NCBI GenBank assembly: GCA_947630145.1
Contig: CANRGL010000002.1
Span: 8,437-72,436, forward strand
DNA: 64,000 bases
Direction of reading: 5' to 3'
Source: an uncultured Clostridia bacterium
Lineage (GTDB): Bacteria > Bacillota > Clostridia > TANB77 > CAG-465
Shown: positions 8,142-42,071 of the stretch, piece by piece
Position numbering within the stretch: the first letter of the stretch is position 1
Layout: each line of letters starts with the position of its first letter
The notes under the pieces: generated by a model
Seen by the model: the letters and a program-made list of their open reading frames with translations, nothing else
Told to the model about the DNA's origin: nothing
Databases searched by the model: none
Position numbers and translations under genes: made by a program

Positions 8142-9392
8142 TTATAATATTCTAATTATATCTTTATATGTAACAAATATGGTCAGTAGTATTAATAATC
8201 CCATTCCTATATATGAAATTATCGCTTCTACATTTTCTGATACTTTTTTTCTAGTAATAGTTTCAAATAATACAATTACAACTTTTCCTCCATCAAGAGG
8301 TGGAAAAGGCATAATATTTGCCACTCCTACAGCAAGCGATATTATGGCCATAAGGTTTAAGAAACTTATTATTCCATTTGTCTTAGAAACAACTTCTCCT
8401 ATTCCTACTATACCAGACATATCATTTATTCCAACTTTACCTCTGAACAAATCAACATATGAACCAATTATTCTTGAAACATCATTTACCATATTCAAAA
8501 TAGCATATTTTAAATTTGTATCTACTATTTGTGTACTTGCTATACCTAAATCAAAATTTTCTTTTTCTTTAGGTGTAATATTTATAGTTGTAGTCTCATT
8601 TTTTCTTTCATAAGTCAATTTCATTTCTTTATTTGCATTTTCACGTATTATAGATATAACTTCTGCAGAAGTATTTGTTTTTACATCATTTATACTTACA
8701 ATTTTATCTCCAGCTTTAATTCCTGCTTCAACTGCAGAGCCTCCTCCTGATACCATATCAATTTCATTAGTAGGATTACCTTCATCATCTATTTTAAATA
8801 CTACACCTATATTACCAATTTTTGTTACTGCATTATCTAATTCTACTTCTTTTGTATTCCCATTATGGATATATTCAATTTTTACTTTTTGGCCATAACT
8901 TACATTTTGATTTGTAAGATCATCAAATATTAAAGTTTTTTTACCATTTATAGATACTATTTCATCTCCTACTTCAAGTCCTGCATTTTGTAATACAGAA
9001 TTAGGTGAAAATTCTGTTATTTTTGTTGTAGCAGTTTTATATGAAAATGCAATACTTAAAAATATTGCTATTGCAAGGATTGCATTCATAACTACACCTG
9101 CAACCAAAATTAATATTTTTTTATACCAACTAATTTTAGCAAATGAGTGTTCACTGTCAGTATTTCCGTCTTCTCCTTCTATTGCACAATACCCACCAAG
9201 TGGTATACATCTTAAAGAATACATTGTTCCTTTAAATTGTTTTTGAAATATTTTAGGTCCAAATCCAATAGCAAATTCATTTACTTGAACCTTAAATAGT
9301 TTAGATATAATAAAATGTCCAAATTCATGTATTGTTGCAACAACACATATTATTATTAATAATTTTATAATAGTAATTAAAAAAGTTAACAA
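8142..9392 (-). CDS. rseP: RIP site-2 zinc metalloprotease RseP/RasP
   Basis: HEFGH motif in TM1, central PDZ region and C-terminal TM helices; follows cdsA. Confidence 0.9.
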   Translation of the reverse strand: MLTFLITIIKLLIIICVVATIHEFGHFIISKLFKVQVNEFAIGFGPKIFQKQFKGTMYSLRCIPLGGYCAIEGEDGNTDSEHSFAKISWYKKILILVAGVVMNAILAIAIFLSIAFSYKTATTKITEFSPNSVLQNAGLEVGDEIVSINGKKTLIFDDLTNQNVSYGQKVKIEYIHNGNTKEVELDNAVTKIGNIGVVFKIDDEGNPTNEIDMVSGGGSAVEAGIKAGDKIVSINDVKTNTSAEVISIIRENANKEMKLTYERKNETTTINITPKEKENFDLGIASTQIVDTNLKYAILNMVNDVSRIIGSYVDLFRGKVGINDMSGIVGIGEVVSKTNGIISFLNLMAIISLAVGVANIMPFPPLDGGKVVIVLFETITRKKVSENVEAIISYIGMGLLILLTIFVTYKDIIRIL

Positions 9393-9408
9393 TTATTTTA
9401 CCTCCATC

Positions 9409-10236
9409 TTACATAAACATATAGATTTTTAAAATTATATATACTATAGGTGCAACAAATAATATGCTATCACATCTATCAAGTATTCCACCATGTCCTG
9501 GCATAAGTGTTCCAAAATCCTTTATTTTACAGAATCTCTTAATAGAAGATGCAGCCAAATCACCGAATTGGCCTACTATACTAGAAACTACTCCCATTAA
9601 TAATACAATATATATATTTAAATCTATTTTTAAATAATAATTAGATATAACATATATTACAATATATGATAATATTGTTCCTATAATACCTGCAACAAAT
9701 CCTTCAATTGTTTTTTTAGGACTTATATCAGGGCATAGTTTATTTTTACCAAACTTTCTTCCAAATAAATATGCAAAAGTATCACATGCAAAAGCACCCA
9801 TAATTACAAACCATATAAATAGTCTACCATTTTCCATCATAAGTATAAGTTTTAGAAACGAAAATAAAAATGGTATATAGAAAATTGAAAGAACTGATAT
9901 TGCTACATCAATTATATTAACTTTTAACTTAGTCAAAATTGCATATATAAATGTCAAAATTATAATTATAGGAATAAATATTTTAATGAACAATATTATA
10001 TTACTCGTACTTAAATTAAATTCAAATAAAAATATTGTAAAACAACTTAAATAGCTAAGTATTGGTACTAATTTATATCCTATAGATTTAAAAGCCTTGT
10101 TATATTCATAAATACCTAAAATTGATAGCAAAAATATAAATATTGTATCGATTAATGGAATATTTATCCACAATATTGATATAACTAAGGCTATAAGTAC
10201 TGTTCCAGTAATTACTCTTTTTTTCACTATACTCAA
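9409..10236 (-). CDS. cdsA: Phosphatidate cytidylyltransferase
   Basis: Polytopic membrane protein ending 'SxxKRxxxxKDxGxxxPGHGGxLDRxDS'. Confidence 0.9.
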   Translation of the reverse strand: MSIVKKRVITGTVLIALVISILWINIPLIDTIFIFLLSILGIYEYNKAFKSIGYKLVPILSYLSCFTIFLFEFNLSTSNIILFIKIFIPIIIILTFIYAILTKLKVNIIDVAISVLSIFYIPFLFSFLKLILMMENGRLFIWFVIMGAFACDTFAYLFGRKFGKNKLCPDISPKKTIEGFVAGIIGTILSYIVIYVISNYYLKIDLNIYIVLLMGVVSSIVGQFGDLAASSIKRFCKIKDFGTLMPGHGGILDRCDSILFVAPIVYIILKIYMFM

Positions 10237-14359: not shown

Positions 14360-15613
14360 ATGATAACAAGTTTTAGATTTGAAAATTGTTTTGCTTTTGA
14401 TAAGCAAGTAGAGATGGCTTTAAGAGCAGATATGAGGACAAAAAGATTTTCTTCAAATGTTTCAAATATAAATAAAAATATTAATGTATTAAAATCTGTT
14501 GCTATATATGGGCCTAATAATACTGGAAAAACAAGCTTTATAAATTGTATAAGAGCAATAAAAAGAACTTTACAAAATAGAAAAATAATGCTAAATGCTA
14601 ATATATTTACAAATAGTCCAATTTGTTATGAGTCTATTTCTTTTGTTTTTGAAGGCAAAGAATATTGTTATGAATATAAATTTGATTGTAATCAGCGTTC
14701 ATATATATATGAGAAAATGGCTGAAATAACAAGAGATCAGCATAAAAATAAAGGTGAAAATGTAATTTTTATAAAAGATACGATAAATGAACATTATGAA
14801 TGTCCATCGGACTTAAATTTACAAAATGTTTTAAATATAGCTTCTACAAATAATATTCTTATATATACAGTACAAATTGAAAAATTTGAAATTTTGCAAA
14901 AAATAAAAGAAATATTAACAAGTGTTGCTAGTAGTATAGAAATTGTTGATATGAATCATATTCCTAATTCAAAGACTATAGAAATGCTAAAAAATAGAAG
15001 TATGGAAACTAAAAAAATAGTTGACTTTATTAAGAATGCAGATATATATCTAGAGGACTATAGATATGAAGAAGATATACAATTTGAAATTGATGGAAAA
15101 GAAGCTGATGAAAAAGTTTTAAAAAATCAAAATTTTGTAGATCAAATAAAATTAGTTTCAGTTTACAAAGGGAAAGCAGTTCCTAGTATTATTTTTGATT
15201 CTTTAGGAACAAGAAAAATAGCAGCACTTGCTAGTTATGTAATAACAGCTATTGAAGAAGGAAAAACATTAATTGTTGATGAGTTAGACAGTAGCTTACA
15301 TTTTAAAATTACAAGAGCAATAATAAGTATGTTTAACAATGATATAAATAAAAATGCTCAATTAATTGCTACATTACATGACATTAGCTTATTAGATTGT
15401 AAAAAAATGTTTAGGAAAGAGCAAATTTGGTTTACAGATAAGAACGATAATGGAACAGAATTATATTCATTAAGAGAATTTAGCTATGATCAAGCAGGTG
15501 TTAGAGATACTACAGATATACAAGATAGATATAGCAAGGGAGCTTTTGGAGCTATACCAGATCCAGATTTAATTTCTACACTATTGGAGGTTGATATAGA
15601 TGAGAAAGTATAG
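14360..15613 (+). CDS. ABC-type AAA ATPase (AAA_15/AAA_21, COG1106-like), AbiLi/AriA-like
   Basis: Walker A 'GPNNTGKTS', Walker B 'LIVDELDSSLH', 'ATLHD', and C-terminal 'RYSKGAFGAIP'. Confidence 0.8.
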   Translation: MITSFRFENCFAFDKQVEMALRADMRTKRFSSNVSNINKNINVLKSVAIYGPNNTGKTSFINCIRAIKRTLQNRKIMLNANIFTNSPICYESISFVFEGKEYCYEYKFDCNQRSYIYEKMAEITRDQHKNKGENVIFIKDTINEHYECPSDLNLQNVLNIASTNNILIYTVQIEKFEILQKIKEILTSVASSIEIVDMNHIPNSKTIEMLKNRSMETKKIVDFIKNADIYLEDYRYEEDIQFEIDGKEADEKVLKNQNFVDQIKLVSVYKGKAVPSIIFDSLGTRKIAALASYVITAIEEGKTLIVDELDSSLHFKITRAIISMFNNDINKNAQLIATLHDISLLDCKKMFRKEQIWFTDKNDNGTELYSLREFSYDQAGVRDTTDIQDRYSKGAFGAIPDPDLISTLLEVDIDEKV

Positions 15614-16208
15614 TGGCAAGAAAATTTGTATTATCTGTGAAGGGTATGAGGAATTAGATTATATTGAAGCATTAAAAAATAAAGCTGTTTTTTCAAACAA
15701 GTATGATTTTATAACGGTTAATGCTAAGTCAATAAACACTATTATTGCAAGATATCAAGAAAAATACCAATCAGATTCATTTTCATTAGTATTAATATTT
15801 TGCGATACAGATAAAGGACCATCTGAAAAGTATAAGAAAATAAAACAAAAAATAAATGAATTTCATGAAGCAGATGTTGCAGATGACATTATTATATTTG
15901 GTAATCCGTGTACAATGCAAATCATACTTTCACATTTTGCAGAAATAAAATTAACTAGCCAAAGCAAGTCTGTAAATGCTAAATATATAAAAGAACTAAC
16001 AGGAATACAAAGTTACAAAGCAACAGATAAACAAAGAAAAGAATTATTTAGCAAAATCAAAAGAGAAAATTATGATGTAATGAAAGAAAATGTAAAAAAC
16101 TTATCTACAAATGATGAAGAACTATCTAGCACCAACATTTTAAGGTTTATTGAGAAATTTGAGAGTGATGATGATAGTTGGATAGATGAAATAAATAAAA
16201 ATTTATAA
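15600..16208 (+). CDS. RloB-domain (TOPRIM-like) protein, AbiLii-like partner
   Basis: N-terminal 'ICIICEGYEELDYIEAL' resembles the RloB 'CEGxxTExxY' motif. 14-nt overlap with the ATPase gene; GGAGG RBS. Confidence 0.65.
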   Translation: MRKYSGKKICIICEGYEELDYIEALKNKAVFSNKYDFITVNAKSINTIIARYQEKYQSDSFSLVLIFCDTDKGPSEKYKKIKQKINEFHEADVADDIIIFGNPCTMQIILSHFAEIKLTSQSKSVNAKYIKELTGIQSYKATDKQRKELFSKIKRENYDVMKENVKNLSTNDEELSSTNILRFIEKFESDDDSWIDEINKNL

Positions 16209-30400: not shown

Positions 30401-31195
30401 TTAAGTATTGTTTTTTATTAAATATATTTTAAAAATTTCTTTTAAGTAATCTATAAATTCAGATTTTTTCACAGATTCTGATAAAACTATATCACTTTCT
30501 CCTACCTTTTCATTAGTTTCTTTATTAAATATTTCAATTTTTCCAACGGCATCTGAAATGTTTAAAGGTGCACATATGTTATCATCAAATGTTATTTTTT
30601 CTATTGTATCTAATTTAGCTCCTTTATCAGATAATATAGAAATATCATCTTTTATGATAACTTGTTGCTTTTTACCAACACATTTATTTACTTTTATATC
30701 ATCCACTACAACATTTTTTTCACAAACTTTTTTTACTTCATAATTAGAAAATCCGTAATCTAATAACATTTTTGTTTCTTCTAATCTTACATTACTTGAT
30801 GGCGCTCTCATAATAACTGCAATAAAAGTAGTTCCATTTCTTGTGGCAGTACCTGATAAATTAAATAATGCCTGTGATGTTGAGCCTGTTTTTAATCCAT
30901 TTGCTCCCTCATAAAAACGTATTAATTTATTTGTACTATTAAGTCCAAAAGTTCCATTTCTTAAAGTATCTTGCCAAATAGATGTATATTTTAGTATATT
31001 AGGATGTTTGGTTATAAGTTCTCTAGACATTATTGCGATATCTTTAGCAGTAGTATAATGCCCTTCTTCATCTATTCCATGAGAATTTTTAAAGCATGTA
31101 TTTTCCATTCCTAATACTTTTGCTTTATCATTCATCATTTTAACAAAATTTTCTTCACTACCACCAATTTTTTCTGCAACAGCAACTGTAACATC
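30401..31195 (-). pseudogene. D,D-carboxypeptidase (PBP5/DacB/DacF-like), C-terminal part of a split gene
   Basis: The frame is open upstream of the listed Met: ...DVTVAVAEKIGGSEENFVKMMNDKAK.... Contains the 'LKTGST' KTG box and the C-terminal beta-sandwich domain. Confidence 0.85.
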
Positions 31196-31248
31196 TCTAT
31201 GGGTTAAATCATGCAGGAAAAAGTTTTATTACTATATATAATTTTTTA

Positions 31249-32547
31249 TTACAATAAATTTTTAATATATTCAATCATAAATAACGGAATATTAATTATT
31301 TTTCCATTTTTACTTAAATTATTCATAGAAAATCTAATAGATAAATCATTTTTAAATTTTTCATTATATCTTGTCAAACTTATATTATTAGTAGAAATAT
31401 TTGATTTTACTTCAATTGGAATTATATTATTTTTGTATTGCATAACAAAATCAATTTCGTGTCTATCAAAAGTAAAATAATTTGGAACTGTATTAAAAAC
31501 ATATACTAACATATTAAGTACATAATTTTCTGTAAAAGCACCTTTAAATTCTTCAAATAATTTATTTTTCTTTATAATAATATTACTATCTAAATTTGCC
31601 ATTTTCCTAAGTAATCCAATATCATTTATATATATCTTAAAACTACTTAAATCATAATATGCTTTAAGAGGAAAATCAGTTTTGTTTACATTATATATTT
31701 TATATATTAAATTTGCATCATTTAACCAATTTAGTGCACTTTCATATTCTCTTGCTCTAGCTCCTTGTTTTACTGTTTGATATAAGAATTTTTTATTTTC
31801 TTTAGCAAGTTGAGATGTTATACTATTCCAAATTAGTGAAATTTTATTTGCCTCACTATTTTCAGTATGTTTAGAAAAATCTGATTCATATGCAGTTAAA
31901 ATATCCTCTTGTATTTTTGTAACTTTTTCTATATCCTTTTCCATAATCCAAGAGTTTACTACTTCTGGCATTCCACCTATTATAAAATACATTTTTAATT
32001 TTTCTTCTAACTGATTGAAAAATATATCAGGAATATTATTTATACTATTAATTGATTTTAAGTATTCTACTAAATTTTCATTTCCATTTGCAATTAAAAA
32101 TTCACTAAATGTCATTGGATACATATTTAAAAAATCTACTTTACCAACAGGAAATGATGTGTGTGACAGTCTTATCCCAAGCAGACTACCAGCACATACT
32201 ATATGATATTCATTTGCTTCTTCGTTAAAATATTTTAGACTATTTAGTGCATCTGGACACTCTTGTATTTCATCAAATATAATTAAAGTTTTTTCTTTTA
32301 AAATTGCTTTACCATATATAAATGCTAATTGCTCTATTATTCTATTTGGAGATTTTGTATTTTTAAATAGATTATATAAGTCTTTATCATGATCAAAATT
32401 AAAATATGCTACTGATTCATAATACATATCTCCAAATTGTTTTAGTATATATGTTTTTCCAACCTGTCTTGCACCTTTTAAAATTAAAGGTTTTCTATTC
32501 TTACTTTCTTTCCATTTTATTAATTCGTCTAATATAAATCTTTTCAT
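31249..32547 (-). CDS. AAA ATPase with DUF4143 / nuclease-like C-terminus (AAA_14 family)
   Basis: Walker A 'GARQVGKTY', Walker B 'LIIFDEIQ', and a C-terminal 'EIDFV...PIEVK' PD-(D/E)xK-like motif. Confidence 0.8.
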   Translation of the reverse strand: MKRFILDELIKWKESKNRKPLILKGARQVGKTYILKQFGDMYYESVAYFNFDHDKDLYNLFKNTKSPNRIIEQLAFIYGKAILKEKTLIIFDEIQECPDALNSLKYFNEEANEYHIVCAGSLLGIRLSHTSFPVGKVDFLNMYPMTFSEFLIANGNENLVEYLKSINSINNIPDIFFNQLEEKLKMYFIIGGMPEVVNSWIMEKDIEKVTKIQEDILTAYESDFSKHTENSEANKISLIWNSITSQLAKENKKFLYQTVKQGARAREYESALNWLNDANLIYKIYNVNKTDFPLKAYYDLSSFKIYINDIGLLRKMANLDSNIIIKKNKLFEEFKGAFTENYVLNMLVYVFNTVPNYFTFDRHEIDFVMQYKNNIIPIEVKSNISTNNISLTRYNEKFKNDLSIRFSMNNLSKNGKIINIPLFMIEYIKNLL

Positions 32548-32655
32548 TTAATTTCTCCATTCCAGTTATATTATATACCATTTTCACATTTTTGTAAACA
32601 TTTTTTAATAAAAAATCACATTTTGACAAATAAAGTATAAAATTCAATCACATTT

Positions 32656-34182
32656 TTACAATTTAGAAAAGTTATAATAAACTTGTACATGTTCTTTAGA
32701 TATATCAATTCTATAAATTAGTTTATCTATTAATTCTTTGCTTATATTATTTCCTAATTCTTGTTCTTTATTTTTTAAAATATTTTTCAATTCAATAATA
32801 TCTTCATTTTCAAAATTCTTTTCTATAAATTCGCATTCTTTTATTTCAGCTTTTATTTCTTCTCTTTTAGCTTTTAAAGATTCTGTATTTTTTAAATATT
32901 CATTTTTAGTTATTTTTTCATCTAATAATTCCATATACATAAAGTCAATATTATCATTTATTCTATTATAATCGAAATTTAACTTTTTTATTCTTTTGCT
33001 TATACTTATTATATTATTTTCTTTCTTTTTTAAAAGTATTTCATTTTCTGCTTTAGAAAAATCAAATAAATTATTATAATGTTCTTTTATATTATCTAGT
33101 ATTTTCTTTTCTAACTTATAATAATTATAATAAAAAGTATCACAACAATGTATTTTAGATTTTGGACAAGATATATCTACTTGTTTTTCACTTCTTGTAT
33201 TAAATTGTACTTTTCTTCCACATTTTGCACAGTAAAGATAAGGTCTTAATAAATAGTTATATTTTAATCCTAAATTTTTTCCATTTTTAGACTTTATAAT
33301 TTCTTGTACTTTATAGAAAACATCTTTATCAATAATAGCTTCGTGCATATTTTCAGTAATAATCCATTCTTTCTCATTTGTTTTCTTTTTATATTTTGAT
33401 TTATATGATATTTTGTTTATAACATTTCTTACAACATTTCCTATATATACCTGATTTTTAAGAATTCTAAGTATTTGTGTACTTTTCCAAACTTTATAAG
33501 TATTCATATCTTTATATTGAATAATAATATTATAATATTCAGCTGGTGTCTTAATTTTTTTGTTATTTAAGTATTTAGCAATATAACTAAAGCTTTTTCC
33601 ATTTAAATACATATTAAATATTTTCTTTACTATATTACTAGAATATTTTTCTACTAATAGCTTTCCTTTATTATTAGGGTCTTTTATATATCCGTATGGT
33701 GCGTATGTTCCAGTATAAACTCCTTTTTCCATATTAGCTCTTTTACTTTTTTTCATTTTCTCTGATACATCTCTTGCAAACTTTTGGTTATTATATAATT
33801 TAAACTCTAAAAGTTCATTTGCAAGTTTATCTAAATATGTATCTACATTATCTAAAACTGCAATAAATCTAATATCATATTCAGGAAAAATTTTTTCTAT
33901 ATAATCTGCCCCATTTATAGATTCTCTTGCAAATCTTGATAAATCTTTTACTATTACAGTATCAATAACTTTATTTTTTATATCTTCTATCATTTGCTTA
34001 AAAGCAGGTCTATTAAAATTTGTTCCACTATATCCATCATCAATATATTCTTTTTTTATTTTAACACCAATATCTTCTGCATATCTAGTCAGTAATTTTC
34101 TTTGATTAGTAATACTCTCACTTTCAATTTTATCTCCATCTTCTTTAGATAATCTCATATATATACTTACATTATTAAACAT
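32656..34182 (-). CDS. Large serine recombinase (downstream copy)
   Basis: 'YMRLSKEDGDKIESESITNQR' catalytic Ser region, recombinase domain, Cys zinc-ribbon 'CAKCGRK...CPKSKIHCC', coiled-coil tail. Confidence 0.9.
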   Translation of the reverse strand: MFNNVSIYMRLSKEDGDKIESESITNQRKLLTRYAEDIGVKIKKEYIDDGYSGTNFNRPAFKQMIEDIKNKVIDTVIVKDLSRFARESINGADYIEKIFPEYDIRFIAVLDNVDTYLDKLANELLEFKLYNNQKFARDVSEKMKKSKRANMEKGVYTGTYAPYGYIKDPNNKGKLLVEKYSSNIVKKIFNMYLNGKSFSYIAKYLNNKKIKTPAEYYNIIIQYKDMNTYKVWKSTQILRILKNQVYIGNVVRNVINKISYKSKYKKKTNEKEWIITENMHEAIIDKDVFYKVQEIIKSKNGKNLGLKYNYLLRPYLYCAKCGRKVQFNTRSEKQVDISCPKSKIHCCDTFYYNYYKLEKKILDNIKEHYNNLFDFSKAENEILLKKKENNIISISKRIKKLNFDYNRINDNIDFMYMELLDEKITKNEYLKNTESLKAKREEIKAEIKECEFIEKNFENEDIIELKNILKNKEQELGNNISKELIDKLIYRIDISKEHVQVYYNFSKL

Positions 34183-35769
34183 CTAATTTATTAAATTAAT
34201 CTCCCTAAAATTAAATATTATTTCTATATTTTTATCTTTATCTATATATATTTTATCAACTAATCTATCTAAAGTTTCTCTTGAGATTTTTTTAGAAAAG
34301 TCCAAAGTTTTTAATACTTTTTTTAATGATTTATCATTTAACTTACTATCTTTTTCTTCATAATTTTTTTTATATTCACTTTTTAGATTTTCTAACGAAT
34401 CTTGAATATTTTCTTTTCTTTTTTTTAATAAATCTGATATTCTGTTATAATCCTCATCTGAAATTATATTATCTAGTTTATCTATATAAGACCTATCTAG
34501 TTTTTGATTGCATTTTTCAATTTCTTTTTCAAAGTTTTCTATTCTATTTCTATATTCTTCTAATTTTTTTCCTAATAAAGCTTTATTTTGAGCTCTAATT
34601 TTTGATAAATTTACACTATTTAAATATTTATCAACTATTTTATTTATTTCTGATAATATTTTTTCTTCTACATAATCATAATTAAAATATTTTTTAGTAC
34701 ATTTTTTTACTCCAACCTCCTTTATAGCTGTAGGACACATTCCATATCTTCTAATAGTTACTTTATCTTTATATTTTTCTTTTTTTGTCACCCAAGTGAT
34801 AGAACATCCACAATCTTTACATTTAACAATTCCTCTTAACAAATATTCGTATTTACTTATTTTACTTGATTTATTTGCCTCTAATTTTTTTAAAACTAAC
34901 TCAAAATCTTTTCTATTTATAATGGCATCATGAGTATTTTTTGTTACAATCCATTCCTCAGGGGGTAGATTTATTACTTTTTTGCTTTTATAATTTATTT
35001 TTCTTTGCTTATTAAGTACAGTATCGCCAACATAAACCTCTTTTTGTAAAATTCTTTTAACAACTGCCGGATACCATTGTTTAGTTATACTAGTACAATT
35101 TTTTCTATTTGTAGATGGAACATTAACCTTTTCCTCATTAAGTTTTTTTGCTATTTGATAAGTTCCCATTCCATTTAAAAACATATCAAAAATTCTTTTT
35201 ACAATTTTGCTTTCTTCTTCATTAATAATTAAGTGTCCTTTTTTATTTGGATCTTTCATATAACCAAATGGAGCTTCAACAGATACATATAGTCCATCTT
35301 TTTTCTTATTATATAACATTGCTCTAAATTTTCTTGATGTATCTTTACAGTATAAATCATTTAATACTGCTTTTAAAGGTAACATATCATCTGTTTCTGT
35401 TATAGTATCTACTTCATCATAAATAGCAATAAATCTAACATTATGTTCAGGAAAATATCTTTCTAAATATCTTCCTACTTCTGAATAATCTCTACCAAGT
35501 CTTGATAAATCCTTTACAACTACCATATTAATTTTATTTTCTTCAATTTCATTTTTTAACTCTAAAAATGCAGGTCTATCAAACTTGAGTCCTGAAATTC
35601 CATCATCCACAAATTCCTTATAGTTTTTCAATCCATTTTCTTTACAAAATCTTTCAAGTATATTTCTTTGATTAGTAATGCTCTCACTTTCGCTCTTATC
35701 TCCATCCTCCTTAGATAATCGTAAGTATAGTCCTACTTTGTAATCTTTGTTAATTTTAAAGATGTTCAA
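34183..35769 (-). CDS. Large serine recombinase (upstream copy)
   Basis: 'YLRLSKEDGDKSESESITNQR', 'CKDCGCSITW...CP' zinc ribbon, coiled-coil tail. TTG start after AGGAGGG preferred. Its stop abuts the next ATG. Confidence 0.9.
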   Translation of the reverse strand: MNIFKINKDYKVGLYLRLSKEDGDKSESESITNQRNILERFCKENGLKNYKEFVDDGISGLKFDRPAFLELKNEIEENKINMVVVKDLSRLGRDYSEVGRYLERYFPEHNVRFIAIYDEVDTITETDDMLPLKAVLNDLYCKDTSRKFRAMLYNKKKDGLYVSVEAPFGYMKDPNKKGHLIINEEESKIVKRIFDMFLNGMGTYQIAKKLNEEKVNVPSTNRKNCTSITKQWYPAVVKRILQKEVYVGDTVLNKQRKINYKSKKVINLPPEEWIVTKNTHDAIINRKDFELVLKKLEANKSSKISKYEYLLRGIVKCKDCGCSITWVTKKEKYKDKVTIRRYGMCPTAIKEVGVKKCTKKYFNYDYVEEKILSEINKIVDKYLNSVNLSKIRAQNKALLGKKLEEYRNRIENFEKEIEKCNQKLDRSYIDKLDNIISDEDYNRISDLLKKRKENIQDSLENLKSEYKKNYEEKDSKLNDKSLKKVLKTLDFSKKISRETLDRLVDKIYIDKDKNIEIIFNFREINLIN

Positions 35770-35839
35770 ATAATCCCTCCTAACAAAGCTACTTATCAAT
35801 AAAATGATATATTATTCTAGTTTTAAAAGTCAATTCCTT

Positions 35840-35935
35840 TTAAGAATCTAATTCTTTTAAAAGAAGTTCCTCTATAATTTCTTGAAAAGTAGGACCATTA
35901 TCATTAAATTTATATGTTACATTATATTCATCCAT
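35840..35935 (-). CDS. Tiny ORF (31 aa) upstream of the recombinase pair
   Basis: MDEYNVTYKFNDNGPTFQEIIEELLLKELDS, with a GAGG-like RBS. Below the ORF-track cut-off. Confidence 0.3.
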   Translation of the reverse strand: MDEYNVTYKFNDNGPTFQEIIEELLLKELDS

Positions 35936-36197
35936 TTTCTGCACCTCTCTACATATTATTAAAATTTAATATTTTTAGAACATTACTTTTTATTTCTTTC
36001 TTTTTCTAATCTTTTCAACTCACTATATATTTTGTTTACAATCTTCTTTCAGGATTTCTTCTTTTTTACATATTTTAAAATTAAAAGCAATATAATTAAT
36101 GGCATTTCCAAATTGAAATTGTGTTTTATAATTATATATATTTTTTAATGTACAATGAAAAGATTTTTAGTGTCTTTACTATTACACGTTACATTTA

Positions 36198-36226
36198 TTG
36201 AACTTTTTATATTCTTTTGTTATAAT
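36198..36226 (+). promoter_or_regulatory. Sigma-A-type promoter for the Nudix gene
   Basis: TTGAAC, 17-nt spacer, TATAAT. It lies inside the long version of the track ORF, which favours the ATG at 36254. Confidence 0.6.
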
Positions 36227-36253
36227 ATTGAATATTATATAGGAGTTTTGATT

Positions 36254-36739
36254 ATGGAAGATATTGAAATAAGAATTAATAATAAAAAGTTTAAGTATAG
36301 GGTTAATGGTATAGTTTTGAAAAACAACAAAATTCTAACATTAAGAATGAAAAATAATATATCATATTGCTTACCAGGTGGACATGTAGAACTAGGTGAA
36401 GACAGTAATTCTGCAATTATTAGAGAAATGCTTGAAGAACTAGATACAAAAGTTACAATAAAAAAAGAACTTGCAATGGTAGAAAATTTTTACAAAGATA
36501 AAAATAATTTACTGACTCATGAAATAAGCTTTTACTATATTGTTGTTCCTGAATCTTTTTCTAAAATACCCTTAGAAAATTATTCAAGATCTGAACATGA
36601 TAAAGGGCAGTTAAAGCAACATAATTTTGTATGGTTAAATTTAGACAATATAACAGACTTTGATTTTAGGCCATCATTTATTAAAGATAAGCTAGTTAAT
36701 AACAATTATGATTTTGAACATATTATAGTAAAAGATTAA
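36254..36739 (+). CDS. Nudix hydrolase
   Basis: Nudix box 'GGHVELGEDSNSAIIREMLEELD' (GX5EX7REUXEEXGU); AGGAG RBS. Confidence 0.85.
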   Translation: MEDIEIRINNKKFKYRVNGIVLKNNKILTLRMKNNISYCLPGGHVELGEDSNSAIIREMLEELDTKVTIKKELAMVENFYKDKNNLLTHEISFYYIVVPESFSKIPLENYSRSEHDKGQLKQHNFVWLNLDNITDFDFRPSFIKDKLVNNNYDFEHIIVKD

Positions 36740-36986
36740 TAGCTATATTTTCTTTTATCTAATAATTTTTTTATTTGAAGTTGCTGTAAAAAAGTCCAAT
36801 AAAAAATTAGGTTTGTATCAAAAATATGATATAAATCTAATTTTTTGATCTTATATTTATAATATAAATAATTTTTATTGATATATTTCTTTTTTTGATA
36901 CAACAAAAGGGGACTTTTTTACACCCCCTTCTAAATTATCAATACTTTCAACAGATATATTTGTATACTTTGTTTTGCTTTATTCT

Positions 36987-37484
36987 TCAATTTTCATTAT
37001 TATTTTTTTCTTTTATTATATCTTTTATAAATTCTGGTAAATTGGTAAATGTAGCTACTATACCTTTATTTGTAAGTGCAAATATATCTCTTGTTTTTTT
37101 ATTTATTTCTTCCTTTACTGCTTTAGGGACTTTAATAGATATTCCTGCTTTTTTATATTCTTGCTCTATGTATTTCTCTAAAGTTGGAAACATATTTTGA
37201 ATTAGAAAAACTGCTTTTTTCCCAGCTAAATTTCTTGCAAAGACAAAATTATTAGGTTCTATACCTTTTTTCAATTTAATATCATTATATACTTTTAAAT
37301 ATTTATCATATTTAGAAGACATTGGCACAAACCATAATATGTTTTTGTCTGTTTTATCTCTAAAACAAAAATAAGTTGGCCTTTTTGTACCAGTTTGTTT
37401 ATTTTCCATCAAATGATATTTTTTATTATACTTATTTATAAACTCATCCTTTATAAAATATAATTTTCCCTCAGTTATTTCCAT
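36987..37484 (-). CDS. ToxN/AbiQ/CptN-like endoribonuclease toxin (type III TA)
   Basis: 'KLYFIKDEFINKY...', '...ILWFVPMSSKYDKY' and 'LIQNMFPTLEKYI' parallel ToxN 'KFYTISSKYIEYL', 'YLAPLTSPK' and 'INLKFMIPIIE'. About 165 aa. Preceded by a repeat RNA plus terminator. Confidence 0.6.
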   Translation of the reverse strand: MEITEGKLYFIKDEFINKYNKKYHLMENKQTGTKRPTYFCFRDKTDKNILWFVPMSSKYDKYLKVYNDIKLKKGIEPNNFVFARNLAGKKAVFLIQNMFPTLEKYIEQEYKKAGISIKVPKAVKEEINKKTRDIFALTNKGIVATFTNLPEFIKDIIKEKNNNEN

Positions 37485-37499
37485 TTTACTCCTCATACA

Positions 37500-37626
37500 A
37501 TAATAAGGGAGTACTAAACTCCCTTATTTATTCACCAGTGTATTTTCTCTTTGCCAACTGGGTGGCTGTTATATCGTTTATCTAGGGTATTTTACTCTTC
37601 GCCTCCTAGTAGGCAGTTTTATTTAT
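37500..37626 (-). ncRNA. Candidate type III antitoxin RNA: two divergent ~47-nt hairpin repeats plus terminator
   Basis: Unit A CUAGG-AGGCGAAGAGUAAAAUAC-CCUAG; unit B CACCCAGU-UGGCAAAGAGAAAAUAC-ACUGGUG. The loops are conserved and the stems covary. The own promoter is upstream; the hairpin ends 6 nt before the toxin RBS. Confidence 0.5.
37502..37528 (-). terminator. Hairpin between candidate antitoxin RNA and toxin ORF
   Basis: 11-bp perfect stem 'aataagggagt'/'actcccttatt' with a 5-nt loop. The U-tract is weak. Confidence 0.5.
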
Positions 37627-37632
37627 ATAATA

Positions 37633-37661
37633 ATTATAGCATTTAATTGTTCAATTGTCAA
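37633..37661 (-). promoter_or_regulatory. Consensus sigma-A promoter driving the RNA-toxin module
   Basis: On the minus strand: TTGACA (37661-37656), 17-nt spacer, TATAAT (37638-37633). Confidence 0.7.
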
Positions 37662-37840
37662 TAATTTTTAATAATATTTCTATAATTATTATATATTATA
37701 TGATATGAAACTTATAAATATATAATACGAATATTTTTAATTTTTAAGTAATTTTATAAGTAAATTATATTTTTTACAATTTTCAACTTTGATAAATAGC
37801 TTATTTTCAATATTTTCTTTCCTGCTAAAATTTAACATAC

Positions 37841-38286
37841 ACATCATTTGCAGAAACTACACATATTGCTTTTAGAGCTTCATCAACTGTCAGTTCTTCA
37901 TTTTCTTTAAACCATATTTGAGATCCTCCCATTTTTGAAGCTTTAGTACTACATTTTATTTTATCTTGATATGTCATTTTCCCAGAATCTATTTGTTCCA
38001 TAGTAAGTAACAATGTCATAATCTTTGTTACAGATGCTGGTAATAATTTTTCATTTTCATTATTAGCATAAAGTATTTCTCCTGTTGTAGGCTCCATTAA
38101 AACTTGTGCTTCTGATTGAAAAGAAAATTCAGGATTACTTGCAAGTGTGCTTATACTACTTGCTTTTGTTTCTTTATTTTTATTTATAGGATACATATAT
38201 GTTGCAAATACAAAATTACCACTTAATAAAAACAACATAAACAAAGCTATACTTATTTTTTTTATTTTAAATATCAAATCAATCAC
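37841..38286 (-). pseudogene. D,D-carboxypeptidase, N-terminal part of the split gene
   Basis: Signal peptide, SxxK 'SVTK' and SxN 'SAND'. After ...SANDV the frame runs into the element (YVKF*). Confidence 0.85.
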
Positions 38287-38402: not shown

Positions 38403-38903
38403 TTATGCATCTGCACCAGTTGGTCCTTGTGGTATAGTTAAATTAAGAACAAAATTTGGTGCACTTCCTTCAATTGTTGCAGCAGCCTGAGTACCTGGCA
38501 AACCAGTTGTAACTTGACCTATTGTAATACTTGGAGTAAGTCCATCAGTACCGGCTGGCCCTTGTGGTCCTTCTGGACCTATTGCACCTTGAGGTCCTAC
38601 CGCACCAGTTGCACCTTGTGGACCTGTTGGTCCTTGTGGTCCTTGAGGTCCGGCTGGTCCTGTTGCTCCTGCTGGACCAGTTGCCCCAGTTACACCATTA
38701 GCTCCAGGTAATCCTTGTAATCCTGGAACACCTTGTGGACCTGTTGGTCCAATTGGTCCAGGAACACCTTGAATACCTTGAACACCTTGAGGTCCTGTTG
38801 CACCAGTAGGACCTGTCATACACATTACTCCTGTTGGAGTAGGACAAGGATTAGGAAAAGGTCTACAACCACCCATAAAATCACAAGAATTGTAGTTATT
38901 CAT
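38403..38903 (-). CDS. Collagen-like triple-helix repeat protein (BclA-like)
   Basis: About 30 uninterrupted GXY triplets ([16 protein letters not shown]...), a Cys/Pro-rich N-terminus and a short non-collagen C-terminal domain. Confidence 0.8.
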
Positions 38904-39002: not shown

Positions 39003-41999
39003 TTATCTAATATTTCTTTCATTCATTATTTTAGAACATACTGGACATAAATATCTATATTTTATATCCTTTCCAAGATCTTGAGAATAGTTTTTACATC
39101 TTTTGCATTCCATTCCTTCTGCAATTTCTATTTTTATATAACTATCATCTGAAATTTCTGTTTTCAATACTGATACATTAAGTGATCTTAAAAAGTCCTC
39201 ATGATTTGAATCTATGAAATTCTTTGTACTTTCATTTACACCTAATATAACTTTAGCTTGTAAAGAATTTTTAATTTTTCTACTTATTATTTCCTTTTTT
39301 AACTGTTCATTAACTTTTTTTATTATAAAGAATATATTATCCCATTTCTTTATTGATTCACTATATTCATCTTTGTTTACTAATTTTAAATCACTTCTAG
39401 TTAATAATATATTCCCTTCTTCCTCAGCACTATTATGCCATATATATGTCCATGTTTCCTCAAATGTAAAAGGAATAATAGGCTCAAGGAATTTTAAAAG
39501 TGTCATGAATATTTCATATAAAGTTGATTGTGTACTTCTTCTTTTCTTATCATTAAAATTTAAAACATATAATCTAAATTTAATAATATTAAAATATTTT
39601 CCACACAAAACTTCTCTACAATATTTATATATAACGTCAAAAACATTATATAAATCTAAATTATTATAGCTTTCTTCTAATTTTTCTTTTACCTCATAAA
39701 GTTTTATATACATATATTTGTCTAAATCATCTCTATCTGAAATTGGAATCACATTTTTTATAGGGTTAAAATCAGAAATATTGGATATTATAAATTTAAT
39801 TGTACTTCTTATTTTTCTATATATTCTGTTAGTATATAATATACTAGATTCATTTAAATTACTATTTTTATTACTTCTTTGTATACACCACAAACGTAGT
39901 ATATCAATACCATATTTCTTTACTATACTATCAACATTAAAACTCTTGTCTACATTTTCTTCATTTTTTACATCTAAATTATTAGGTTTTGCATTTTGTA
40001 TATTTTTATTAGTTTTTCCAAGATAAAAAAATGTTTTACTTTTCTTTTCCTGTTTTTCCTTACTAATATCATTATCAACATTTTTAACATCATTATTGGA
40101 AACTTCTTCCTTATTTTTATCGTCTTTATTATCTACAATATTAACCTTTGAATGTAATAAAATGTTATTAATTTTACATACTTGTTCTAGACTATCCTCA
40201 TCAAAACTAAATGATATGATTTTTCTTATAAAATCTTCATAATTTTCTATGCAAATATCTATTTTATTTATATCGTTATTATTTGAATTGTTAGTATTTT
40301 TATTTTCTCTTATTAAAGGAATACACATATATTTAAAGAAACTATTTATTGTACTACTTCCTTTAAATAAAAAAGTACAACCACAGTTATTACATTTTAC
40401 TTTACCTTGAAATATTTCTTCAGGAGTTTCCTTAAACCATGATTCAATTCCTCTGGTATTAAATACATTTTTTAAAGTTGAAATAGACTCTTCAGTAATT
40501 ACCTCACTTGAGCATTCTGCACAATACAACATTGGTAAAGGAATACCAAAATTATCTTCACTAGAAATAACCTTTTCTTTATTTTTTATACTATTATATA
40601 GCTTTTGTTTAATAATATCTTTATTTTCCGCAGAGCATTGACTTATTTTAGATATAATACTATCAAATGATTGTTTTAATTTTTCATCATCAGCTGTCTT
40701 TTTTAAATACCATACCTGTTCAGATCTAAGTATTACTTCTTCATTGCATTCTTTACATCTAGAAATTTTTAATTGTATATTATCTGTACATAAAATTCTC
40801 TTGTTTTGTTTTAACATTTCTATAACTTTAGTATTACATTGTTTATAATCCATGTTCTTAAAGTTATATGCAAGCATGGTAGTCTTACCTTCTTTAGTTA
40901 AATTATTATTTATTTTTACGGCTATATTTTCTTTTGAAACTAAATAATCTATATATAAATTCCCAGAAGATATTATTGAGATTCCTGACGATTTTTTATC
41001 ATTTGCCATAATATATTCTTTTTTTACTGGAATGACTTGAAGATCCTTAGCATTATCTACCACACTTTTACAAGTCATACCTATAAGTTCACTACCTAAA
41101 ACTTTTTTCTTTACTTCGTATTTTATAAAAAATGATAAGTCCATTATATAATCAACATTTTCAGAAGAAATAATATAATGTACTTTTTTATCATTTTGAC
41201 TTACCTCTACAACACTATATTCCATATCTTCAATTACTGATAAATTATTATCAAAATCAAGTACCCATGGTTTAGTAACATTAGCCACAAAATATGTGTT
41301 TTCTAAATTATTTAATTCCTTAAAAACATCTTTATCATAACTAACTTTAAAATTTAAAAAATAATTAATTACATTTTCATTCTCACGTTTAATATCTTCT
41401 CTTTCTGGAGTTTTATTACAATGTGCACACCAACTTACAGGCCTCAATTTATGATATATTTTATTATCATTATACAATTTCCAAAATTTATCAATTACTC
41501 TTGCTTCAAATCCTGAATTAAGAGTTGAACTATTGAAATTTCCGTAATCAATAATAGTTCCTAAATTTTTAATCTCTTGAATTTGTTTTTTTGCACTTTC
41601 GCTAAGTTCTTTCTTTTTTAATTCTCTTTTTTTTATAAGTTCCTGCGTTTTTGCAGATTTATTTGTCTTATCTTCTAGTATATTATATATATATGCAAAA
41701 TCAATATTATGATTAACTTTATTACCATTTAACAGTCTATACCTTATTACAATATCTTTTAATATTTTATTTTGTATACATGTAGGATCTATGTCATCTT
41801 TTATCATAACAGGATTCTCTAATATATTATATAAAGTATTACTAGACTCATTTTTCTTTAATACTTCTCTATATCTTCTAACATCTTGAATCCTTGCTAA
41901 AAAAAACGTTTCTTTTTTTGGAAGATCGGCATTAGTTGCAATTGTCTTTTTAGGCAAGTTCATAGTGTCAGAAAAATCAACCTTATCATTTATTTTCAT
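39003..41999 (-). CDS. Isoleucyl-tRNA-synthetase-like protein lacking HIGH and KMSKS (probable pseudoenzyme)
   Basis: Colinear with type-1 IleRS: 'NLPKK', 'NKILKDIVIRY', 'FGIPLPMLYC', 'KKYGIDILRLW', 'YRKIRSTIKFIISNISDFNP', C-terminal 'CKRCKNYSQDLG...LCPVC'. But 'DIDPTCIQNK' replaces 'GNxHxGHALNK', and an Asn/Lys-rich insert sits where KMSKS should be. Confidence 0.75.
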   Translation of the reverse strand: MKINDKVDFSDTMNLPKKTIATNADLPKKETFFLARIQDVRRYREVLKKNESSNTLYNILENPVMIKDDIDPTCIQNKILKDIVIRYRLLNGNKVNHNIDFAYIYNILEDKTNKSAKTQELIKKRELKKKELSESAKKQIQEIKNLGTIIDYGNFNSSTLNSGFEARVIDKFWKLYNDNKIYHKLRPVSWCAHCNKTPEREDIKRENENVINYFLNFKVSYDKDVFKELNNLENTYFVANVTKPWVLDFDNNLSVIEDMEYSVVEVSQNDKKVHYIISSENVDYIMDLSFFIKYEVKKKVLGSELIGMTCKSVVDNAKDLQVIPVKKEYIMANDKKSSGISIISSGNLYIDYLVSKENIAVKINNNLTKEGKTTMLAYNFKNMDYKQCNTKVIEMLKQNKRILCTDNIQLKISRCKECNEEVILRSEQVWYLKKTADDEKLKQSFDSIISKISQCSAENKDIIKQKLYNSIKNKEKVISSEDNFGIPLPMLYCAECSSEVITEESISTLKNVFNTRGIESWFKETPEEIFQGKVKCNNCGCTFLFKGSSTINSFFKYMCIPLIRENKNTNNSNNNDINKIDICIENYEDFIRKIISFSFDEDSLEQVCKINNILLHSKVNIVDNKDDKNKEEVSNNDVKNVDNDISKEKQEKKSKTFFYLGKTNKNIQNAKPNNLDVKNEENVDKSFNVDSIVKKYGIDILRLWCIQRSNKNSNLNESSILYTNRIYRKIRSTIKFIISNISDFNPIKNVIPISDRDDLDKYMYIKLYEVKEKLEESYNNLDLYNVFDVIYKYCREVLCGKYFNIIKFRLYVLNFNDKKRRSTQSTLYEIFMTLLKFLEPIIPFTFEETWTYIWHNSAEEEGNILLTRSDLKLVNKDEYSESIKKWDNIFFIIKKVNEQLKKEIISRKIKNSLQAKVILGVNESTKNFIDSNHEDFLRSLNVSVLKTEISDDSYIKIEIAEGMECKRCKNYSQDLGKDIKYRYLCPVCSKIMNERNIR

Positions 42000-42071
42000 A
42001 ATATCCCTCTTATTAATATAATTTGTTGTTTTTCTCATTATATCAGATTTTTTTTATTTTTTCAATACAAA

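Follow-up and report, generated by a model that had tools for sequence, protein, structure and literature searches.

Among described type III toxin-antitoxin systems, the closest to the locus reported here is CptIN of Eubacterium rectale (Rao et al., 2015, PMC4627078; CptN structure PDB 4RMO). The E. rectale antitoxin CptI, for which we used a 45-nt sequence derived from a primer, is an H-type pseudoknot with a single-base loop L1 (G13) and a long A-rich loop L2 (A27-G35, AUAUAAAUG), whose A-minor twist runs along stem S1. It is cut at GA|AAG, and the 2',3'-cyclic phosphate is kept on A45 (PMC4627078). In the cptIN family the repeat length is 40-48 nt and the copy number 1.9-3.4 (Blower et al., 2012, PMC3401426). 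According to a 2025 survey (PMC12283969), repeats of toxI and cptI known to date are nearly identical, and non-identity is described there as a peculiarity of tenpI. We report a cptIN locus in a 64,000-nt stretch of DNA from an uncultured Clostridia bacterium (assembly GCA_947630145.1, contig CANRGL010000002.1, positions 8,437 to 72,436 of the forward strand), which as a whole is called the window and to which the coordinates below refer.

The locus occupies positions 36987..37661 on the minus strand. We regard it as very probably a type III module of the CptIN family that works by the mechanism proposed below. It shares with E. rectale CptIN a homologous toxin and the order of promoter, two RNA units, hairpin and toxin, and with the family at large a unit length of 48 nt and the presence of two units, both within the published ranges. 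The difference from published cptIN loci that concerns us most is that its two units are just 65 % identical, with three base pairs swapped between them, whereas cptI repeats are described as nearly identical. The locus is thus ordinary for the CptIN family apart from divergent repeats that share one knotted fold. It is not a new kind of system, and the prevailing view of how type III systems work is unchanged by these findings.

Two other groups of systems invite comparison. TenpIN (Sci Rep 2025, PMC12283969) likewise has two non-identical repeats that tandem-repeat finders miss and that are pseudoknot-capable; it differs in its toxin family, and PMC12283969 reports no covariation between units and contrasts tenpI with toxI and cptI. 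ToxIN of Pectobacterium and Bacillus and AbiQ/antiQ are also type III systems with this gene order, a Kid/MazF-like toxin fold and a toxin that processes its own RNA inhibitor. ToxI differs from the RNA described here in consisting of 36-nt repeats in up to 5.5 copies, in its triplex-containing pseudoknots and in a 3:3 heterohexameric complex.

The toxin gene cptN

The coding part of the locus and its ribosome-binding site are as follows.

36987..37484 (minus): cptN, CptN-family endoribonuclease toxin, 165 residues, coordinates including the stop codon; assigned by NF047359, PDB 4RMO, AlphaFold2 with Foldseek, and substitution rates
37489..37494 (minus): ribosome-binding site GAGGAG, 4 nt 5' of the ATG; AGGAG stands at the same position in homologous loci

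An in-frame ATG at 37496, upstream of the annotated start, overlaps the ribosome-binding site, and all homologues begin at the position of 37484.

The toxin scores 132 bits (E 1.5e-38) on the NCBIfam equivalog model NF047359 ('type III toxin-antitoxin system CptIN family toxin'), above its cut-off of 90 bits, and covers profile positions 1-145 of 150. By sequence, its only solved relative is 4RMO (phmmer E 3.4e-20, residues 8-148), and its identity to E. rectale CptN is 29-31 %. An AlphaFold2 model built from 26 homologues (mean predicted local distance difference test score, pLDDT, 89.7; predicted template-modelling score, pTM, 0.84) has a twisted beta-sheet core with surrounding helices, a Kid/MazF-like fold nearest to CptN. 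The best match of this model in the PDB is 4RMO_A (Foldseek E 2.8e-10, TM 0.76/0.80); the next are MazF toxins, ToxN of B. thuringiensis and AbiQ, with 4ATO and 4GLK among the hits. A Pfam scan of the toxin at E<=1 gave no match to ToxN_toxin (PF13958), in which it differs from ToxIN and AbiQ, and returned just two sub-threshold unrelated families. PADLOC gave no match to the toxin, and its match among the PHROG families is phrog_33519, of unknown function (E 1e-15). On sequence grounds, we assign the toxin specifically to the CptIN family and not to ToxN_toxin.

These results bear on an earlier sequence-only reading of this DNA, which had recognised a type III toxin-antitoxin module at the correct coordinates, with its strand left unstated, and had described the toxin as ToxN/AbiQ/CptN-like. 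Of the three names CptN is the one that stands, through both the profile search and the predicted structure (in which ToxN of B. thuringiensis and AbiQ follow 4RMO_A), and the Pfam ToxN_toxin family is not matched.

Of the E. rectale active site, a Ser-Ser/Thr-Arg triad together with Tyr104, Asp81 and Ser85, the residues Ser51/Ser52 and Tyr104 are conserved in the phmmer alignment as S56/S57 and Y110 of the toxin, and S56 and Y110 are unchanged across the 26 homologues. Compared with eight close homologues, the ratio of nonsynonymous to synonymous substitution rates (dN/dS) of cptN is 0.07-0.12 at dS 0.7-1.5, which indicates strong purifying selection. This conservation speaks to the idea that the module is an inactive remnant, a reading that has some points in its favour: truncated cptN genes with intact repeats are known (PMC3401426), many fragmentary homologues appear in our toxin protein search, and the U-tract of the terminator-like hairpin is degraded at the window locus relative to its relatives. 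Set against these are a full-length cptN under strong purifying selection, a perfect promoter, two intact pseudoknots, and the presence of the identical locus on several independent assemblies, with the same arrangement on every contig that encodes the identical toxin. We therefore consider a remnant highly improbable.

Two divergent units with a common predicted fold

Directly upstream of cptN, on the same strand, lie two antitoxin units with a period of 48 nt and an identity of 65 %. Their parts, all read on the minus strand, are these.

37582..37614 (minus): unit 1 pseudoknot core, from sequence, covariation and stems invariant in the clade
37614..37611 and 37604..37601 (minus): unit 1 stem S1, GCCU with AGGC, and a possible wobble pair U37615-G37600
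37610 (minus): unit 1 loop L1, A37610
37609..37605 and 37586..37582 (minus): unit 1 stem S2, CUAGG with CCUAG
37600..37587 (minus): unit 1 loop L2, GAAGAGUAAAAUAC
37535..37566 (minus): unit 2 pseudoknot core, from sequence, covariation and stems invariant in the clade
37566..37563 and 37556..37553 (minus): unit 2 stem S1, GCCA with UGGC
37562 (minus): unit 2 loop L1, C37562
37561..37557 and 37539..37535 (minus): unit 2 stem S2, CCAGU with ACUGG
37552..37540 (minus): unit 2 loop L2, AAAGAGAAAAUAC

Each unit is predicted to be an H-type pseudoknot, with an S1 of 4-5 bp, a one-base L1, an S2 of 5 bp and an A-rich L2 of 13-14 nt. The strands follow the order S1 5', L1, S2 5', S1 3', L2, S2 3', so that S1 encloses the 5' strand of S2. 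The fold matches that of E. rectale CptI in its topology, its one-base L1 and its long A-rich L2 with AAAU. It differs in the length of L2 (13-14 nt against 9) and in the distance between the S2 5' and S1 3' strands, which are 0 nt apart here and two apart in E. rectale.

Between unit 1 and unit 2 there are double substitutions at one S1 pair (U-A to A-U) and at two S2 pairs (U-A to C-G and G-C to U-A). The L2 motif AAGAG-AAAAUAC is common to both units, and AAAU is conserved. The identity of the units is as low as 65 % because compensatory substitutions have altered the stems, with the fold and the loop motifs retained.

Much of this had been anticipated. The sequence-only reading counted two units of about two-thirds identity and proposed compensatory changes between CUAGG/CCUAG and CCAGU/ACUGG, and both proposals are borne out. 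It gave each unit a single hairpin: the hairpin that it saw is S2, and it missed S1 (GCCU/AGGC and GCCA/UGGC), with which the fold becomes an H-type pseudoknot. Its view of the repeats as unusual holds for their divergence, which runs through the whole clade and is lesser in related clades, and does not hold for the presence of two units of about 48 nt, which is the norm for cptIN.

Covariation in homologous loci

Single-sequence tests of the fold were not significant, so that the evidence beyond chance is comparative. A search for pseudoknot patterns with dinucleotide shuffles was dropped in favour of covariation, having given at least one hit in 48 % of shuffles; it does not discriminate, since AT-only helices are frequent in AT-rich DNA. 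Nested minimum free energy (MFE) was likewise set aside as a test of the units, because it cannot represent pseudoknots, and was used for the terminator hairpin only.

Our protein search yielded 236 toxin homologues, and a scan of one genome per species gave 80 loci, all from uncultured gut Clostridia. The order promoter, two units, hairpin and ribosome-binding site upstream of the toxin recurs in nearly all 80; the exceptions are one locus without a leader (L054) and one that is truncated (L005). Slices of 59 nt around the units, comprising 84 distinct units from 78 loci, were aligned with MAFFT without structural input, and the resulting alignment (A2) is almost ungapped. The proposed pseudoknot pairs are complementary in 85.7 % of the cells of this alignment; sliding the 3' partners by 1-3 columns lowers the figure to 30-41 %. 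The proposed pairs have a covariation score of 0.497 and the slid controls, which account for the relatedness of the loci, no more than 0.141; 0/500 shuffles, a control that ignores relatedness, reach the observed values. Changes on both sides occur in nine of the ten pseudoknot pairs.

In one group of loci, called group D below, the helices are displaced by one or two columns. This group shows 100 % pairing in its own register, and four S2 positions covary between its two units. Without group D, 96.6 % of cells pair in the common register, and four Watson-Crick types are found at one S2 position. Both stems, S1 and S2, are supported by this natural covariation as far as sequence comparison can show, and the covariance analysis over homologous loci comes out in favour of the compensatory changes first noticed at the window locus. 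With about 80 gut-Clostridia loci, natural covariation becomes available for the CptI pseudoknot, so far known from one crystal structure.

Within the window's own clade, 17 distinct leaders show 36/36 stem positions and 20/27 L2 positions invariant, against 1/5 positions of the terminator loop and 14/44 unannotated positions. Since unit 1 is as invariant as unit 2, it appears to be a maintained, functional-looking RNA and not a decaying copy. This bears on the possibility that the locus has only one working antitoxin, likeliest unit 2, with unit 1 a decaying duplicate or turned to another task, for instance as a spacer for processing or in regulating transcript stability. Both units of group B, the nearest outgroup, are of the unit-2 type, so that unit 1 is the derived one; one CptI repeat is enough for antitoxicity in E. 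rectale (PMC4627078); and the UGA seen at other junctions is missing where the 3' junction of unit 1 aligns. Opposed to a single working unit are the invariance of the unit 1 stems and of most of its L2 in 17 distinct leaders while toxin dS reaches 0.7-1.5, the compensatory and not disruptive nature of the changes in unit 1 relative to unit 2, the retention of AAGAG-AAAAUAC in both units, and the independent recurrence of pairing-preserving unit differences in groups B, C and D and in locus L068. We regard a single working unit as improbable.

Divergence between units across clades

Tandem Repeats Finder (TRF) reports no period of about 48 nt in the window leader, even at score 30. The homologous loci fall into groups that differ in this respect.

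Window locus: units 65 % identical; no period reported by TRF
Window's clade, 17 further loci: toxin identity to the window 82-93 %; units 57-67 % identical; period reported in none
Group B, nearest outgroup: toxin identity about 60 %; units 82-96 % identical; period reported in all
Group C: toxin identity about 50 %; units 69-84 % identical; period reported in all
Group D: toxin identity about 47 %; units 69-75 % identical; period reported in 1/8

Overall, TRF reports a period of 46-49 nt in 51/78 loci and 27/78 are invisible to it, which suggests that about one in three such loci in this clade escapes surveys that rely on repeats.

Differences between units that preserve pairing are found within single loci of other groups as well. 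They include CCUAU/AUAGG and CCUGC/GCAGG in group C, ACCUAU/AUAGGU and GCUUGC/GCAAGC in group D, and CCAGU/ACUGG and CCGGU/ACCGG in three further loci (L020-22), and the units of L068 have a wholly different S1 (CGCAA/UUGCG and CGGAG/CUCCG). Such pairing-preserving differences have arisen independently and recur across clades. An identity of 65 % is unusual for cptI when measured against the statement in PMC12283969, which is our yardstick here and not the per-locus identities of the 33 published loci. The window's clade thus extends non-identical repeats from tenpI to cptIN, and cptI repeats need not be near-identical, which qualifies that statement.

We further note that some genomes carry two cptIN loci of different clades with different stems: L026 and L077 in Clostridium sp. 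CAG:245 (FR880082.1), L024 and L050, and L045 and L062. These two-locus genomes are consistent with the strict cognate specificity reported for CptI and CptN.

One reading of the divergence, which we put forward tentatively and think less likely to be true than not, is that the two units are a maintained pair of different pseudoknots that enter an obligate hetero-assembly, a pseudo-symmetric ring of two CptN, one unit 1 and one unit 2. Selection for unlike S2 stems would then prevent mispairing in the precursor or recombinational loss of a repeat. Behind this idea stand the pairing-preserving within-locus S2 differences in at least four clades of the toxin family, of which the window's clade is the extreme. 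If it were true, repeat-based searches would systematically under-count type III loci.

Promoter, leader and hairpin

The non-coding features around the units are these.

37633..37661 (minus): sigma-70-type promoter, with -35 TTGACA at 37661..37656, a 17-nt spacer, TG at 37641..37640 and -10 TATAAT at 37638..37633
37615..37626 (minus): predicted single-stranded 5' tail of unit 1, 12 nt, A/U-rich (AUAAAUAAAACU), 10/12 positions invariant in the clade
37502..37528 (minus): terminator-like hairpin between antitoxin and toxin, 11 bp with a 5-nt loop, then AUUGUAU; from fold energy
36907..36934 (minus): hairpin and U-run past the cptN stop codon; z -2.9 for the 92-nt stretch, which is weak evidence

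The promoter hexamers match the consensus at 12/12 positions, with an extended -10 element (TGcTATAAT), and both are invariant in the 17 distinct leaders of the window's clade. From the spacing we predict a transcription start near A37626. The leader (37502..37615) has a GC content of 39.5 % and the two units 43 %, against 25 % for the window and 23 % for the coding sequence; the 163 nt upstream of the promoter have 12 %. The hairpin at 37528..37502 has a fold energy of -15.3 kcal/mol (z -5.1), equalled by 0/200 shuffles, and ends 7 nt from the ribosome-binding site. In most relatives a canonical U-tract (CCCUUUUUAUUAU) follows the hairpin, which is kept with compensatory stem changes. The hairpin past the stop codon is likely a terminator common to cptN and the convergent NUDIX gene.

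The consensus promoter with its 17-nt spacer and the GC-richer leader had both been correctly noticed from the sequence alone, as had the strong hairpin, whose distance to the ribosome-binding site was given as 6 nt and is 7.

A search of the leader against Rfam 15 at a permissive E-value gave chance-level matches only, the best with E 0.57 and far under the gathering scores. NCBI's CptIN model would name the toxin; the RNA half, having no Rfam family and escaping tandem-repeat finders, would not be annotated with it, so that such a module would normally be left as an orphan toxin gene.

The same leader could be read as a purely cis-acting control of cptN, an attenuator or riboswitch-like element and not a trans-acting antitoxin. 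Attenuators, too, have a 5' leader with structure and, close ahead of the ribosome-binding site, a terminator hairpin, and at this locus we only infer action in trans. The leader, on the other hand, has no Rfam match near threshold, and it holds two homologous units of CptI topology, and the protein encoded downstream passes the CptN equivalog model; moreover, the repeats act in trans in every tested family member. We accordingly give purely cis-acting control very little credence and retain the reading of the leader as an antitoxin RNA.

Predicted processing sites and proposed mechanism

Two stretches of the leader are candidate processing sites.

37567..37581 (minus): inter-unit linker AUAAACGAUAUAACA, 15 nt, A-rich; predicted CptN processing site, from alignment A2
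37529..37534 (minus): 3' tail of unit 2, UGAAUA; predicted cut after UGA (GGUGA|AU), opposite GGUGA|AAAAAU in groups B and C in the alignment

By analogy with E. rectale CptI, the cleavage sites would lie in the A-rich linkers between units and not in L2. The A-rich loop that the sequence-only reading took for a ToxN-like cleavage site is this L2, which is structural in CptI and not a cut site. All units of groups B and C have GGUGA|AA(AAAU or CGAU) after them, in agreement with the GA|AA context of E. rectale, and unit 2 of the window is followed by GGUGA|AUAAAU. Within the linker the candidate cuts are UAGA|UAAAC or AUA|AACGAU, the latter from its alignment with GGUGA|AACGAU in related loci. 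After unit 1 comes CCUAGAUAAACGAU, where the alignment puts AUA|AAC opposite UGA|AAC, and a cut one step upstream, at GA|UAA, is also possible. A transcript starting at A37626 would give unit 1 a 12-nt 5' tail without processing, equal to that of unit 2 provided that the cut in the linker falls after AUA. The predicted tails differ in length from those of E. rectale CptI, at about 12 nt against 6 on the 5' side and about 3 nt against 5 on the 3' side.

We propose the following mechanism. The strong promoter would act constitutively and give an RNA of about 125 nt that mostly stops at the hairpin 37528..37502, and occasional read-through would give the cptN mRNA, leaving the antitoxin RNA in excess over the toxin. 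CptN, as an endoribonuclease of Kid/MazF fold, would cut the precursor in the A-rich linkers into two RNAs of about 48 nt, each of which would take up an H-type pseudoknot fold with its A-rich L2 laid along S1. The processed RNAs would remain attached to CptN by their single-stranded tails and complete an inactive ring, which by analogy with E. rectale CptIN would be a heterotetramer of two proteins and two RNAs, here with one copy of each unit. Once the labile RNA was no longer transcribed, through loss of the element or phage shut-off, free CptN would cleave cellular or phage RNAs and arrest growth. This proposal starts from the toxin's family and fold, the layout of the locus and the covariation of both stems, and from them we infer the transcription start, attenuation, cleavage sites, stoichiometry, toxicity and role.

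Several observations weigh against this reading, or against parts of it. Toxicity, antitoxicity, processing and complex formation are all argued from homology. Nested folding of the single units does no better than shuffles (z -0.9 and z -0.5), and in the nested MFE of the leader the two units pair through their 5' halves. The U-tract of the hairpin is interrupted at the window locus, and a consensus terminator scan makes no call there. Asp81 and Ser85 of E. rectale CptN, which specify the scissile adenine (PMC4627078), correspond in the phmmer alignment to Ala87 and Ala91, a further difference from that toxin. At the aligned site 3' of unit 1, the GA|A context does not retain its G. With the two alanines and the loss of this G, the cleavage specificity of the toxin is uncertain on present sequence evidence; it may differ from that of E. 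rectale, as expected where toxin and RNA co-evolve. Points that concern the element and phage resistance are taken up below.

In the nested MFE structure of the whole leader (-34.9 kcal/mol, z -3.9; minus strand), an interrupted 12-bp helix joins the 5' half of unit 1 (UGCCUACUAGGAGGC, 37615..37601) to the 5' half of unit 2 (GCCACCCAGUUGGCA, 37566..37552). The helix may reflect an alternative folding of the precursor before processing, or else be an artefact, the model being blind to pseudoknots.

The integrated element and the role of the locus

Published cptIN loci are described simply as chromosomal; the window locus differs in lying on an integrated serine-recombinase element, delimited as follows.

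31196..37840: integrated element, 6,645 bp; the Peptidase_S11 fragments rejoin at the repeat
31191..31195 and 37841..37845: 5-bp flanking repeat, ACATC on the plus strand and GATGT on the minus strand
37825..38286: N-terminal part of the interrupted Peptidase_S11 gene, Pfam profile positions 6-108
30401..31138: C-terminal part of that gene, profile positions 125-238, plus PBP5_C

The element carries a DUF4143/AAA_14 ATPase gene (31249..32547), two adjacent large serine recombinases, a NUDIX gene (36155..36739) and cptIN, and precisely interrupts a gene for a D-Ala-D-Ala carboxypeptidase (Peptidase_S11) in the region 30401..38286. The rejoined protein reads ...ICVVSAND|VTVAVAEKIGG... and gives one contiguous Pfam match over positions 6-238 of 239 with 222 bits; the reconstituted junction (attB) is ...AATGATGT|TACAGTT.... 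These boundaries make cptIN the outermost gene of the element, with its promoter about 180 bp from the right junction, and so confirm the placement at the right end that had been proposed from sequence. The locus thereby offers a testable case of a type III module that ends a small excisable element splitting a cell-wall gene. The sporulation genes yabP and yqfD lie near the element on the same contig, so that a developmentally excised 'intervening element' is conceivable.

Large serine recombinases are found at 24/80 loci overall, and within 4 kb in many group C loci. Close cptN homologues also occur in other contexts without recombinases, which weighs against an original association: the link of cptIN to the element is not ancestral.

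Close cptN homologues repeatedly adjoin a DUF4143/AAA_14 ATPase (L083-L085, L018) or a NUDIX gene (L086, L088), and one database protein (P0105) joins a CptN-like part to a NUDIX domain. At L086 a short open reading frame at 9169..9474, 1.7 kb downstream of the cptIN homologue, has a weak Pfam ToxN_toxin match, and two type III toxin families may stand side by side there.

As the role of the locus, post-segregational stabilisation of the element has, in our estimate, about an even chance of being correct. It is the most likely role because of the position of cptIN, outermost among the genes of a 6.6-kb excisable serine-recombinase element. Plasmids are stabilised by CptIN of E. rectale, and in E. 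coli cloned cptIN loci did not make the cells resistant to phage, which counts against a protective function and leads us to favour stabilisation over abortive infection.

A main role in abortive infection, with the molecular mechanism unchanged, nevertheless deserves weighing, and we think it the less likely of the two, though far from negligible; defence could be the chief alternative to stabilisation or come in addition to it. ToxIN, AbiQ and TenpIN abort phage infection. The recurrence of DUF4143/AAA_14 and NUDIX genes near cptN homologues, and once of a ToxN-like reading frame, hints at defence-island-like clustering, and an AAA_21/RloB pair lies within the window as well. No cptIN locus has so far conferred phage resistance, the tests being of coliphages in E. 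coli only; the phage collection searched contained no homologue of the toxin; and a location at the extreme end of an excisable element suits addiction. Stabilisation of the element thus remains our preferred role.

We also observe that plasmids carry six distant CptN homologues (35-42 % identity), annotated as hypothetical, for example on NZ_CP084160.1 and NZ_CP048628.1. Their hosts are Fusobacterium, Megamonas, Virgibacillus, Clostridium perfringens and Oscillibacter. In the 2012 survey, no cptIN locus lay on a plasmid (PMC3401426).

Other genes in the window

Elsewhere in the window, three further regions were noted.

14360..16208 (plus): AAA_21 ATPase (Pfam 'putative AbiEii toxin') adjoining an RloB-like protein, a candidate defence or toxin-antitoxin pair
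38403..38903 (minus): collagen-triple-helix-repeat protein with G-x-y repeats, just outside the element
39003..42038 (minus): class I tRNA-synthetase-like protein of 1,011 residues, just outside the element

The tRNA-synthetase-like protein has weak Pfam scores (E about 1e-17) and is unusually divergent for an IleRS-type enzyme.

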